A stretch of 64,000 bases of DNA from Escherichia coli (lineage in GTDB: Bacteria > Pseudomonadota > Gammaproteobacteria > Enterobacterales > Enterobacteriaceae). Shown here in pieces: positions 11,809-22,409 of this stretch. Under the pieces are notes generated by a model that did not search any database, had not been told where the DNA came from, and saw only the letters and a list, made by a program, of their open reading frames with translations. The position numbers and the translations under genes were made by a program. Position 1 is the stretch's first letter; every line of letters starts with the position of its first letter. The stretch lies in NCBI RefSeq assembly GCF_046105845.1, contig NZ_CP151004.1; one strand, 5' to 3'.

Positions 11809-11907
11809 TGCCGGATGCGACGTGAACGTCTTATTGGCCTACAAAATCATGCAAATTCAATACATTGCATAAGCCACGTAGGCCTGATAAGCGTAGCGCA
11901 TCAGGCA
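11809..11907. repeat. REP (repetitive extragenic palindromic) elements, two copies in opposite orientation (BIME-like)
   Basis: gccggatgcgacgtgaacgtcttattggcctac and taggcctgataagcgtagcgcatcaggca match the canonical E. coli REP consensus; located just downstream of the glpD stop. Confidence 0.8.
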
Positions 11908-14882: not shown

Positions 14883-15641
14883 ATGAAACAAACACAACGT
14901 CACAACGGTATTATCGAACTGGTTAAACAGCAAGGTTATGTCAGTACCGAGGAACTGGTGGAGCACTTCTCCGTCAGCCCGCAGACTATTCGCCGCGACC
15001 TCAACGAACTGGCAGAGCAAAACCTGATCCTGCGCCATCATGGCGGCGCGGCGCTGCCTTCCAGTTCGGTTAACACGCCATGGCACGATCGTAAAGCCAC
15101 CCAGACCGAAGAAAAAGAGCGCATCGCCCGCAAAGTGGCGGAGCAAATTCCTAATGGCTCAACGCTGTTTATCGATATCGGCACCACGCCGGAAGCGGTG
15201 GCGCACGCGCTGCTTAATCACAGCAATTTGCGCATTGTCACCAACAATCTCAACGTCGCTAACACGTTGATGGTAAAAGAAGATTTTCGCATTATTCTCG
15301 CCGGTGGCGAATTACGTAGCCGCGATGGTGGGATCATAGGCGAAGCGACGCTCGATTTTATCTCCCAGTTCCGCCTTGATTTCGGCATTCTGGGGATTAG
15401 TGGCATCGATAGCGACGGCTCGCTGCTGGAGTTCGATTACCACGAAGTTCGCACCAAACGCGCCATTATTGAGAACTCGCGCCACGTTATGCTGGTTGTC
15501 GATCACTCGAAATTTGGCCGTAACGCGATGGTCAATATGGGCAGTATCAGCATGGTAGATGCCGTCTACACCGACGCCCCGCCGCCAGTAAGCGTGATGC
15601 AGGTGCTGACGGACCACCATATTCAACTGGAGCTGTGCTGA
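14883..15641 (+). CDS. glpR: DeoR-family glycerol-3-phosphate regulon repressor GlpR
   Basis: 252-aa ORF MKQTQRHNGIIELVKQQGYVSTEELVEHFSVSPQTIRRDLNELA (DeoR HTH). Confidence 0.95.
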   Translation: MKQTQRHNGIIELVKQQGYVSTEELVEHFSVSPQTIRRDLNELAEQNLILRHHGGAALPSSSVNTPWHDRKATQTEEKERIARKVAEQIPNGSTLFIDIGTTPEAVAHALLNHSNLRIVTNNLNVANTLMVKEDFRIILAGGELRSRDGGIIGEATLDFISQFRLDFGILGISGIDSDGSLLEFDYHEVRTKRAIIENSRHVMLVVDHSKFGRNAMVNMGSISMVDAVYTDAPPPVSVMQVLTDHHIQLELC

Positions 15642-17221
15642 TCCTGCACGGCTTCCCACGTCAGACCAAAACGCGCCAGGTATTTGCGTAGCCGATCCGC
15701 GTCATTGACGCTGGCTTTGCCCTGGCGCGAAACATCAAAAAGCTGTCGTCCGGCAGCAGAAAGCGACTTTGCCTGGCGGCAGATAGCGATAACGTGTTCC
15801 AGTTGCATACGGTCGAAGAGGTCGATGTTTTCTGCCTCAGCGCCCAGCAACGCCGGAAGCGCGGAGGGGCGACTCTCCTGCCAGTTATAGCGCAGACGGT
15901 TTATCTCATCTTCCACCACTTCCCGAGTGATGCGTCCGCTAGTGGCAAAGGTTGCCATCCGCGTGACGCTGGCAGAAAGTTCGCGAAAGTTACCGCGCCA
16001 TGTTGCCTGGGGAGAGGTCGCAAAAGCCAGCCAGGCGCGCCGCGCTTCGGTGTTAAAACGCACGCTGTCGCCAGTGAGTGAGGCGTGGCGCTCCACTTCA
16101 TAATCCAGGTTCGGTTCAATATCTTCCTGGCGCTGGAGTAGACCCGGCAGGGTGAAGGTCCAGAGATTGATCCGCGCGTACAGATCTTCGCGGAATTTGC
16201 CTTCGGCAACCAGCTGACGCAAATCGCGCACCGTTCCGGCGATAAGCTGAAAGTCGCTACTCACCTGGCGATCGCTGCCAAACGGATAAAAGGTTTTCTC
16301 TTCAATGGCTTTCAGCAACATCGCCTGTTCGTCTGCGCCCAGTTCGCCAATCTCATCAAGAAACAACATGCCACCGTTGGCGCTGCGTAATAATCCTTCA
16401 CGAGATTCCCGCGCCCCGGTGAACGCGCCTTTCACATGACCAAACAGCGTCGACATGGCGGTATCGCCGCGCAGGGTGGCGCAGTTCACTTCCACAAACG
16501 CGCCGCTAAACTGATGCCGTGCCTGTTTTAATTCAAAGATGCGTCGCGCCAGAAATGACTTACCCGCACCGGTCGGGCCGTTAAGCAGGATCGGTGCGCG
16601 GGATTTGATCGCCACTTTTTCGATCTGCTCAATCATGCGGTTGAAGTGGGGGTTACGTGTGGCAATGCCGGATTTGAGGAAGTCGAGGGTTTGCTGGCGT
16701 TCCTCGGCAAAGCGGCTGGCGATGGCGTTATAACGGCTTAAATCGAGATCGATAATCGTCACTTCACCTGCGCCGCGCGGTTGTTCTTTTTTGCGCGGTG
16801 GTGAAGATTGTATCAGCCGGGCGGGCAGGTAACGCGCTTCTGCCAGCAGAAACCAGCAAATCTGCGCGACGTGGGTACCGGTGGTGATGTGAATTAAATA
16901 GTCTTCTTTTTCTGGCTGGAACGCGTAACCACGGGCGAAATCATGCAGGCAGGCGTAAACCTCTTCGAAATCCCACGGGTTATGCAGTTCTATCTCAACG
17001 CCCACCACTTCTGTTTCTGGCGAAACGCTGGCGATATCGCGTTTAAGCGTTTCGAATAGCGAGCGCGAGCGGGCGTCGTGCAATAATTCCAGCCGATCGA
17101 TAACTAACGATTCTTGCTGGCATAGACAGAGTGTCGGACGCCATTTTGACCAGCGCTGACTGCCGCGCCCGGCATAATCCAGCACCGTTCCGACAAAACC
17201 AAAAGCCACTGTTTTACGCAT
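15623..17221 (-). CDS. rtcR: sigma54-dependent transcriptional activator RtcR
   Basis: 532-aa ORF MRKTVAFGFVGTVLDYAGRGSQRWSKWRPT...; AAA+ sigma54-activation domain (GPTGAGKS, GAFTGA); its 3' end overlaps the glpR 3' end by 19 bp (convergent). Confidence 0.94.
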   Translation of the reverse strand: MRKTVAFGFVGTVLDYAGRGSQRWSKWRPTLCLCQQESLVIDRLELLHDARSRSLFETLKRDIASVSPETEVVGVEIELHNPWDFEEVYACLHDFARGYAFQPEKEDYLIHITTGTHVAQICWFLLAEARYLPARLIQSSPPRKKEQPRGAGEVTIIDLDLSRYNAIASRFAEERQQTLDFLKSGIATRNPHFNRMIEQIEKVAIKSRAPILLNGPTGAGKSFLARRIFELKQARHQFSGAFVEVNCATLRGDTAMSTLFGHVKGAFTGARESREGLLRSANGGMLFLDEIGELGADEQAMLLKAIEEKTFYPFGSDRQVSSDFQLIAGTVRDLRQLVAEGKFREDLYARINLWTFTLPGLLQRQEDIEPNLDYEVERHASLTGDSVRFNTEARRAWLAFATSPQATWRGNFRELSASVTRMATFATSGRITREVVEDEINRLRYNWQESRPSALPALLGAEAENIDLFDRMQLEHVIAICRQAKSLSAAGRQLFDVSRQGKASVNDADRLRKYLARFGLTWEAVQDQHSSS

Positions 17222-17354
17222 CTTAGATATCCTTATAAAAGACGATATTTCATTATCGGTAAATTGGCTTTGCGGGAAATCTCCGTTTACGGACGTAAAA
17301 ATTTAATCTATTAAAAACAATGAATTAAAAAATTAAGCTGCTTAATTAATTTTC

Positions 17355-17370
17355 TGGCACGACGGTTGCA
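17355..17370 (+). promoter_or_regulatory. sigma54 (RpoN) -24/-12 promoter of rtcBA
   Basis: TGGCAC-gacgg-TTGCA, a perfect match to the sigma54 consensus TGGCAC-N5-TTGCA, about 40 bp upstream of the rtcB ATG and downstream of divergent rtcR. Confidence 0.85.
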
Positions 17371-17408
17371 ATTATCAGGACAGCAAACAACGAAAAGAGA
17401 AAAACAAA

Positions 17409-18635
17409 ATGAATTACGAATTACTGACCACTGAAAATGCCCCGGTAAAAATGTGGACCAAAGGCGTGCCGGTAGAGGCCGATGCGCGTCAGCAACTTAT
17501 TAATACGGCGAAGATGCCGTTTATTTTCAAACATATTGCGGTAATGCCGGATGTACACCTGGGTAAAGGTTCCACCATTGGTAGCGTGATCCCAACCAAA
17601 GGGGCGATTATTCCGGCGGCGGTGGGCGTGGATATCGGTTGTGGAATGAACGCGCTGCGTACCGCGTTAACGGCGGCAGACCTGCCGGAAAACCTGGCGG
17701 AACTGCGTCAGGCGATTGAAACAGCCGTGCCGCACGGGCGTACTACCGGACGTTGTAAACGTGATAAAGGCGCATGGGAAAATCCGCCTGTTAGCGTCGA
17801 TGCGAAATGGGCTGAGCTGGAAGCCGGTTATCAGTGGTTAACGCAAAAATATCCGCGTTTCCTTAACACTAACAACTATAAACACCTGGGAACGCTGGGA
17901 ACGGGTAACCACTTTATTGAAATCTGCCTTGATGAGTCGGACCAGGTGTGGATTATGCTGCACTCCGGTTCACGCGGAATCGGTAACGCCATCGGGACTT
18001 ACTTTATCGATCTGGCGCAAAAAGAGATGCAGGACCAGCTTGAAACCTTGCCGTCGCGTGATCTGGCGTACTTTATGGAAGGTACGGAATACTTTGATGA
18101 TTACCTAAGAGCCGTGGCCTGGGCGCAGCTTTTCGCCAGCCTTAACCGCGATGCGATGATGGAAAACGTGGTAACGGCGTTGCAGAGCATTACGCAGAAA
18201 ACGGTCAGACAGCCACAAACGCTGGCGATGGAAGAGATCAACTGTCACCACAACTATGTGCAAAAAGAACAGCACTTTGGTGAAGAGATCTACGTGACGC
18301 GTAAAGGCGCGGTGTCTGCGCGTGCTGGTCAATATGGAATTATTCCAGGGTCGATGGGGGCGAAGAGCTTTATCGTCCGTGGGCTGGGAAATGAAGAGTC
18401 GTTCTGTTCGTGCAGCCACGGTGCCGGGCGGGTAATGAGCCGTACCAAAGCGAAAAAACTGTTCAGCGTGGAAGATCAAATTCGTGCCACCGCGCATGTG
18501 GAATGCCGTAAAGATGCCGAAGTGATCGACGAAATCCCGATGGCGTATAAAGATATTGATGCGGTGATGGCTGCACAAAGCGATCTGGTGGAAGTTATCT
18601 ATACCCTGCGTCAGGTGGTGTGCGTAAAAGGATAA
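17409..18635 (+). CDS. rtcB: RNA-splicing ligase RtcB
   Basis: 408-aa ORF MNYELLTTENAPVKMWTKGVPVEADARQQLINTAKMPFIFKHIAVMPDVHLGKGSTIG. Confidence 0.95.
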   Translation: MNYELLTTENAPVKMWTKGVPVEADARQQLINTAKMPFIFKHIAVMPDVHLGKGSTIGSVIPTKGAIIPAAVGVDIGCGMNALRTALTAADLPENLAELRQAIETAVPHGRTTGRCKRDKGAWENPPVSVDAKWAELEAGYQWLTQKYPRFLNTNNYKHLGTLGTGNHFIEICLDESDQVWIMLHSGSRGIGNAIGTYFIDLAQKEMQDQLETLPSRDLAYFMEGTEYFDDYLRAVAWAQLFASLNRDAMMENVVTALQSITQKTVRQPQTLAMEEINCHHNYVQKEQHFGEEIYVTRKGAVSARAGQYGIIPGSMGAKSFIVRGLGNEESFCSCSHGAGRVMSRTKAKKLFSVEDQIRATAHVECRKDAEVIDEIPMAYKDIDAVMAAQSDLVEVIYTLRQVVCVKG

Positions 18636-19655
<1,020 letters not shown>

Positions 19656-19668
19656 TACAGAGATGTAA

Positions 19669-19692
19669 GCCGGATCCGACGTATTATCCGGC
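19669..19692. terminator. REP-like hairpin between convergent rtcA and malT
   Basis: gccggat / atccggc 7-bp inverted repeat with 10-nt loop in the 42-bp gap between the two stop codons; no clear T-run. Confidence 0.35.
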
Positions 19693-19697
19693 TAAAC

Positions 19698-22409
<2,712 letters not shown>

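Follow-up and report, generated by a model that had tools for sequence, protein, structure and literature searches.

The 64,000-nt stretch of Escherichia coli DNA analysed here (hereafter the window) carries rtcR and, divergent from it, a full-length rtcB with rtcA behind it, which is the arrangement of the RNA-repair operon and its regulator. On the minus strand, rtcR (15623–17221) encodes the cognate enhancer-binding protein of 532 aa. On the plus strand, rtcB (17409–18635) encodes the RNA ligase of 408 aa and is the first gene behind the promoter considered below; the second gene of the operon, rtcA (18639–19655), encodes the RNA 3'-phosphate cyclase, with 338 aa when counted from the RefSeq start. 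The rtcR and rtcB genes are intact by open reading frame, Pfam and alignment to K-12, and rtcA was placed from its open reading frame, Pfam and the RefSeq annotation. Between rtcR and rtcB lies an intergenic region of 187 nt. Strain ETEC1738 is 100% identical to the window over a 271-bp query from this region (17180–17450), and its RefSeq annotation gives matching gene names. The gene order of ETEC1738, glpD-glpE-glpG-glpR-rtcR-rtcB-rtcA-malT-malP, is like that of K-12 MG1655, including the stretch glpR-rtcR-rtcBA-malT.

The neighbouring genes show some features of their own. The glpR gene (14883–15641, plus strand) is an intact 252-aa reading frame that shares 19 nt with the 3' end of rtcR, whereas it is annotated as a pseudogene in MG1655. 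The rtcB stop codon TAA is followed directly by ATG ATG (18633–18641); RefSeq places the rtcA start at the second ATG (18639), and the first ATG of the tandem, at 18636, gives an alternative product of 339 aa. This junction suggests that translation of rtcA may be coupled to that of rtcB. In the convergent gap between rtcA and malT, a hairpin GCCGGAT-N10-ATCCGGC (19669–19692) has a 7-bp stem and lacks a T-run, and it received no call in the terminator scan.

At the protein level, RtcR combines an N-terminal CARF-type domain (PF06956, RtcR/CARF; residues 2–185, 1.4e-85) with a fused sigma-54 activation domain (PF00158, Sigma54_activat; residues 187–354, 6.3e-51). RtcB matches PF01139 (3.5e-133), and RtcA matches PF01137 (3.9e-80) in addition to PF05189. 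The three proteins are 97–99% identical to their K-12 counterparts (RtcR 524/532, RtcB 403/408, RtcA 328/338), and internal stops are absent. Alignment shows that RtcR carries Walker A (GPTGAGKS), Walker B and GAFTGA. Among its 8 substitutions relative to K-12 are L229F, within the AAA+ domain, and R362L, shortly beyond this domain. The earlier note had described the rtcBA promoter as retained intact, and this is correct, since all three reading frames are stop-free and K-12-like and the Walker A, Walker B and GAFTGA motifs are present; the promoter core and the 5' UTR are likewise those of K-12.

The intergenic region holds a sigma-54 −24/−12 core, TGGCAC-GACGG-TTGCA (TGGCACGACGGTTGCA), at 17355–17370 on the plus strand, which was assigned from the sequence, a position-specific scoring matrix (PSSM), K-12 identity and published promoter and ChIP-seq data. 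Read directly from the window, it consists of TGGCAC (17355–17360), the spacer GACGG (17361–17365) and TTGCA (17366–17370), with ttttc on its 5' side and attatc on its 3' side. The GG and GC dinucleotides lie at 17356–17357 and 17368–17369, respectively, and the extended match CTGGCACGACGGTTGCAAT covers 17354–17372. There are 0 mismatches to TGGCAC-N5-TTGCW, and GG and GC have the spacing of a sigma-54 promoter. The core lies 54 nt upstream of the rtcB ATG (17409), on the same strand, and the start codon of the divergent rtcR begins at a distance of 134 nt. The coordinates and letters given in the earlier note are therefore exact, and its placement of the element between divergent rtcR and rtcBA agrees with Pfam and with the strands of the reading frames.

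Taken alone, the motif is of moderate significance only, because its form with up to two mismatches shows no enrichment in the window (44 matches against 43.5 expected). The exact pattern TGGCAC-N5-TTGCA, searched on both strands of the 64 kb, occurs once against 0.07 expected, and at least one exact match arises in 7 of 100 dinucleotide shuffles of the window. For scoring, the PSSM was built from the 41 other intergenic-sense ChIP-seq sites in Table 1 of Bonocora 2015, with the rtcB site left out (leave-one-out). The check with a sigma-54 position weight matrix that had been proposed beforehand came out in favour of the site: at 17.36 bits it is the top position in the window on both strands, with the runner-up at 13.59 bits. 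Its score lies above the median of the training sites (15.93) and within their range (8.0–21.6); under the same leave-one-out matrix, 12 of the 41 verified E. coli sites score higher, and 16 of 100 whole-window shuffles reach the score of the rtcB site somewhere. A reverse-strand match, CTGTCCTGATAATTGCA (17383–17367, 13.35 bits), lacks the GG and was dismissed; it is a by-product of the palindromic nature of TTGCAA.

The mid-range overall score results from the G+C-rich spacer GACGG, and it fits the reported behaviour of the native promoter, which was found to be "very weak in vitro"; for this reason, the nifH −24/−12 element was substituted for it in that study (PMC9650030). The description of the site as a textbook promoter with a perfect consensus thus holds for the 11 specified core bases, but it is less apt for the G+C-rich spacer, the mid-range score and the weak activity in vitro.

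These modest statistics, with an exact match in 7 and a matching PSSM score in 16 of the 100 shuffles, favour an alternative in which the core matches the motif by chance or binds sigma-54 unproductively and rtcBA is driven by another promoter, for example one of sigma-70 type. In addition, many intragenic sigma-54 sites are non-productive, and sigma-54 binding alone does not prove a promoter (Bonocora 2015, PMC4591121). Against this alternative, no sigma-70-like promoter was found in 17100–19800, where 2.1 were expected, and none was placed for rtcB or rtcR; moreover, the cognate activator RtcR is encoded alongside the site. The weight for calling 17355–17370 a promoter comes from its context, that is, from position, strand, K-12 identity and cross-phylum conservation, and not from the motif alone.

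In the alignment with MG1655, no base differs from 17346 up to and including the rtcB ATG. Nucleotide differences are confined to about 7 positions and one 1-nt indel (17287–17345) and to the rtcR coding region. The two strains thus have in common the extended element, the predicted transcription start, the 28-nt UTR, the distance to the ATG and the divergent rtcR. They differ in the few SNPs and the indel upstream, in 5–10 amino acid changes per protein and in the intact glpR of the window.

In K-12, the same sequence is a published promoter. Zhao 2010 listed tttcTGGCACGACGGTTGCAATtatc (26 nt) among known sigma-54 promoters and assigned it to rtcB at −54 to −37 from the start (PMC2831329), and the offset from the rtcB ATG in the window equals that entry. 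In another genome-scale study, Bonocora 2015 reported CTGGCACGACGGTTGCA as the sigma-54 ChIP-seq site OS35, with a FAT score of 17, a mid-range PSSM score of 11.161 and a predicted start 28 nt from rtcB (PMC4591121). OS35 also carries the flag 'C', denoting experimental confirmation in EcoCyc (PMC4591121). The 16-mer core is found verbatim in both studies (PMC2831329, PMC4591121). At the functional level, Engl 2016 showed that the 175 nt preceding the rtcB ATG, corresponding to 17234–17408 of the window, confer RtcR-dependent reporter activity (PMC5175333). Both the EcoCyc flag on the identical K-12 sequence and the RtcR dependence of this fragment argue against a chance match, as does the sigma-54 dependence of the Salmonella orthologue in reporters (PMC3844500). 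On the other side stand the residual RtcB in a delta-rtcR strain (PMC5175333) and some RtcR-independent induction (PMC9650030), which point to the possibility of additional minor promoters. Sigma-54 occupancy, RtcR dependence and repression by the CARF domain would apply to the window by analogy, through published work on the K-12 sequence, which is identical, and on the Salmonella orthologue. In the 1998 work of Genschik, as relayed by later papers, rtcBA is said to depend on sigma-54 and RtcR, and N-terminally truncated RtcR is said to be constitutively active.

The predicted transcription start (+1) is C17381 on the plus strand, with A17380 at −1. This position follows from the rule of Bonocora, which places the start 19 nt downstream of the centre of the 17-mer (17362), and the 28 nt from 17381 to the rtcB ATG equal the distance in the Bonocora table. 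An ApC primer was used at −1/+1 of the native rtcBA promoter (PMC9650030), and it matches a17380–c17381 in the window. The 28-nt 5' UTR of rtcB that would result (17381–17408, plus strand) is purine-rich, contains a Shine-Dalgarno-like GAGA stretch and is identical to that of K-12. No Rfam RNA family matched in the promoter or the rtcB UTR.

Conservation at orthologous positions provides a further line of evidence. A search of genome contigs for RtcR yielded 29 loci, of which 25 had a full-length RtcR with upstream sequence and were used for counting. The loci come from Escherichia species, Klebsiella, Intestinirhabdus, Superficieibacter, Iodobacter, Accumulibacter and Pseudomonas, and further from Verrucomicrobia, Calditrichia, Desulfobulbales and Desulfovibrionaceae. 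The −24/−12 element was required to have GG and GC fixed, at most 2 mismatches in 12 positions, the strand divergent from rtcR and a distance of 100–200 nt from the rtcR start. Such an element is present in 20 of the 25 loci, spanning Proteobacteria, Desulfobacterota and Verrucomicrobia, at observed distances of 128–177 nt. With 0.016 expected per locus from the background rate, the binomial P is ~5e-32 when related loci are treated as independent, a value that is overstated because some of the RtcR loci are related. In 3 further Verrucomicrobia loci, the same element lies farther from rtcR. The form common to the loci is TGGCACG-N4-T(T/C/A)GC(A/T).

The position and strand of the site beside rtcR are therefore kept across phyla, in intergenic DNA that is otherwise too divergent to form conserved blocks, which again speaks against a chance match. 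Considering both sides, the idea that the core is fortuitous or non-productive and that another promoter drives rtcBA is scarcely credible. No sequence evidence against a sigma-54 promoter of rtcBA was met in the analysis, and it can be stated with near certainty that the E. coli rtcBA RNA-repair operon has its sigma-54 (RpoN) dependent promoter at 17355–17370.

Farther upstream, a candidate for the RtcR enhancer (upstream activating sequence, UAS) can be proposed from conservation. In an intergenic alignment of seven Enterobacteriaceae taxa, conservation is concentrated at the −24/−12 element and in an rtcR-proximal block, with little elsewhere. The rtcR-proximal block holds the rtcR ribosome-binding site together with the palindrome CGATA-tttcat-TATCG (17243–17258; −138 to −123), which lies 22–37 nt upstream of the rtcR start codon and within the functional 175-nt reporter fragment (PMC5175333). 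The Superficieibacter counterpart of this palindrome forms a perfect 8-2-8 repeat. GATAW motifs occur at about −125 to −165 in the majority of RtcR loci, which belong to several phyla. They are found at this distance even in Verrucomicrobia in which rtcR lies 0.8–1.7 kb away; thus, the motif tracks the promoter and not rtcR.

On these grounds, the palindrome at 17243–17258 is probably the RtcR enhancer, and its closeness to the rtcR start suggests autoregulation of rtcR. A fuller proposal holds that RtcR bound to this enhancer would also regulate its own gene, and that the consensus core and the conserved G+C-rich spacer are perhaps tuned for a tight off state; such tuning may agree with the weak activity in vitro. 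We regard this proposal as tentative, with a likelihood a little below even. A UAS and an IHF site have been stated to exist at rtc, with no sequences given (PMC9650030). In the searchable literature, no sequence-level definition or footprint of an RtcR site was found; Genschik 1998 may contain one.

Between the putative enhancer and the core, AAACAATGAATTA (17315–17327, plus strand), centred at about −60, resembles an IHF site, with one mismatch to the consensus WATCAANNNNTTR. The sequence is invariant in the sampled E. coli strains. Perfect IHF consensus sequences occur at −61/−62 in five beta/gamma-proteobacterial loci (one each of Iodobacter and Accumulibacter, three of Pseudomonas), and Superficieibacter has one at −50. 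In the Verrucomicrobia and Desulfobulbus/Desulfogranum loci, no IHF match was obtained near −60 with the cut-off used. The AT-rich spacer DNA contains two further palindromes, AATTAAGC-T-GCTTAATT (17331–17347) and TTTACG-GA-CGTAAA (17286–17299), which were rejected as operator or UAS because they are imperfect in K-12 and variable among Escherichia. Both are perfect only through the allele of this strain, and they probably arose by chance from SNPs in AT-rich DNA.

Within E. coli, the region is widespread and its core is stable. The rtcR–rtcB intergenic region was found in 4855 of 5426 complete genomes, and about 570 of the 5426 had no match to it. At least 4352 of the 4855 genomes carrying the region have an exact match of at least 28 nt to 17350–17379, across the core. 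Over 17346–17390, 2543 genomes are identical to the window and 2301 show 1–2 differences. TGGCAC-N5-TTGCA is kept in all variants sampled, among them O157:H7, an APEC strain and E. coli B; their SNPs are 17361 G>A, at the first base of the spacer, 17378 G>C and 17383 A>C.

Disrupted loci were also encountered. In E. coli Res13-Sevr-PER06-05-b-A (NZ_CP062815.1), homology to the window stops at about 17375/17376, 5–6 nt past TTGCA, and an IS5 transposase gene lies nearby; in this strain, rtcB is cut off from the sigma-54 promoter by the IS5 insertion, which falls between the −12 element and the predicted start. In E. coli LB858871 (NZ_CM142823.1), an IS1-associated rearrangement has its breakpoint at window position 17357, inside the −24 element; copies of IS1A flank rtcB, which is broken into two partial pseudogenes, and no rtcR lies nearby. 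In APEC E18006, rtcR is annotated as frameshifted and the promoter core is intact. Given this frameshift and the roughly 570 genomes that lack the region, the Rtc module is dispensable and has repeatedly been lost or disabled in E. coli, and intact retention is not trivial at the level of the species.

It may be asked, then, whether the core could be intact and the system nonetheless silent in this strain, the upstream SNPs and indel (17286–17347) and the RtcR substitutions impairing RtcR or IHF. The roughly 7 differences from K-12 between 17287 and 17345, the presence of L229F and R362L among the 8 changes in RtcR, and the precedent of other E. coli with a frameshifted rtcR or with IS5 or IS1 at the promoter would be in line with such a loss. 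However, the palindrome at 17243–17258, the IHF-like sequence at 17315–17327, the core and the UTR all equal K-12, the positions that differ lie in stretches that are freely variable among E. coli and Escherichia species, and the GAFTGA and Walker motifs are unchanged. Since the conserved blocks are those of K-12 and the changes lie in variable segments, a silent system is very unlikely, and the reading of the site as a working sigma-54 promoter of rtcBA is preferred.

For this promoter, the following mechanism can be envisaged. Sigma-54 RNA polymerase would bind GG at −24 and GC at −12 and form a stable closed complex that does not open the DNA unaided. The divergently encoded RtcR would be kept inactive by its N-terminal CARF domain as long as stress is absent. 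Upon damage to RNA or the translation apparatus, RtcR would oligomerise on the upstream enhancer, which is probably the palindrome at 17243–17258. Through DNA looping, probably aided by IHF near −60, its GAFTGA loop would contact sigma-54, and ATP hydrolysis would open the promoter. Transcription would then proceed from near C17381 through rtcB and rtcA. The promoter sequence and its surroundings, the K-12 identity, the integrity of the genes and the conservation are direct observations; the precise start and the positions of the UAS and the IHF site are predictions from the sequence.

The E. coli pspA promoter and its activator PspF offer a model for such an arrangement: the activator gene is divergent, the enhancer lies more than 100 nt upstream near the activator start, and an IHF-type site is located between enhancer and promoter. 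The analogy between rtc and psp has been drawn before (PMC9650030). The window shares the divergent activator gene, and the putative UAS and IHF-like sites would be the counterparts of those at pspA. The two activators differ in their control, which for RtcR is exerted in cis by a CARF domain sensing RNA damage and for PspF in trans by PspA; the sequence of the putative UAS is unrelated to that of pspA.

A closer relative is the Salmonella Typhimurium rsr promoter, TGGCACGCTGGTTGCAAT, which binds sigma-54 and shows sigma-54-dependent activity (PMC3844500). This promoter, which serves the RtcR-dependent rsr-yrlBA-rtcBA operon, resembles that of the window in its core, its G+C-rich spacer and the divergent rtcR (PMC3844500, PMC9879122). 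By contrast, 3 of the 5 spacer positions differ, and the Salmonella promoter drives rsr (Ro60) and Y RNAs before rtcBA, whereas rtcB follows directly in the window.

The promoter is already known, the locus is an ordinary one for E. coli, and the analysis adds nothing new on sigma-54 promoters. Its value is that of a control. The earlier note had offered the region as a positive control with the architecture expected of the RNA-repair operon, and rtcR, the sigma-54 promoter and rtcBA were all identified, so the first identification of this region was reliable. The Rtc RNA-repair module, which other E. coli have lost or disrupted, is complete in this strain and presumably inducible. In the literature, Rtc has been linked to tolerance of ribosome-targeting antibiotics and ribotoxins.

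Other RtcR loci place additional genes behind the sigma-54 promoter. In Intestinirhabdus and Superficieibacter (L008, 433–674, and L025, 343–716, both on the minus strand), the order is of the Salmonella type, with about 1.6 kb following the promoter, then YrlA-like genes and rtcB. The stretch of about 1.6 kb is presumably rsr/Ro60, and the YrlA Y-RNA-like genes number 2 or 3 (RF02553, 69–102 bits). In Pseudomonas sp. GD03944 (L011, 2330–2345 to 2065, minus strand), the promoter is followed about 120 nt downstream by tRNA-like genes, an SPFH/Band-7 gene and rtcB. In Ca. Accumulibacter (L010, 2026–2041 to 1781, minus strand), tRNA-like genes about 170 nt downstream of the promoter precede a gene for an SPFH/Band-7 protein. 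These tRNA-like genes match the Rfam tRNA family at 60 and 51 bits; ARAGORN calls a tRNA-Met(CAT) in the Accumulibacter locus and two tandem tRNA-like units in the Pseudomonas locus, one of which has an abnormal anticodon loop. These genes may encode tRNA mimics that resemble Y RNAs, or spare tRNAs induced by damage. Elsewhere in the window, just outside glpD, 11843–11885 on the plus strand matches the sRNA family ES036 (CssrF) of Rfam at 46.8 bits, above its gathering-level threshold of 37.6.
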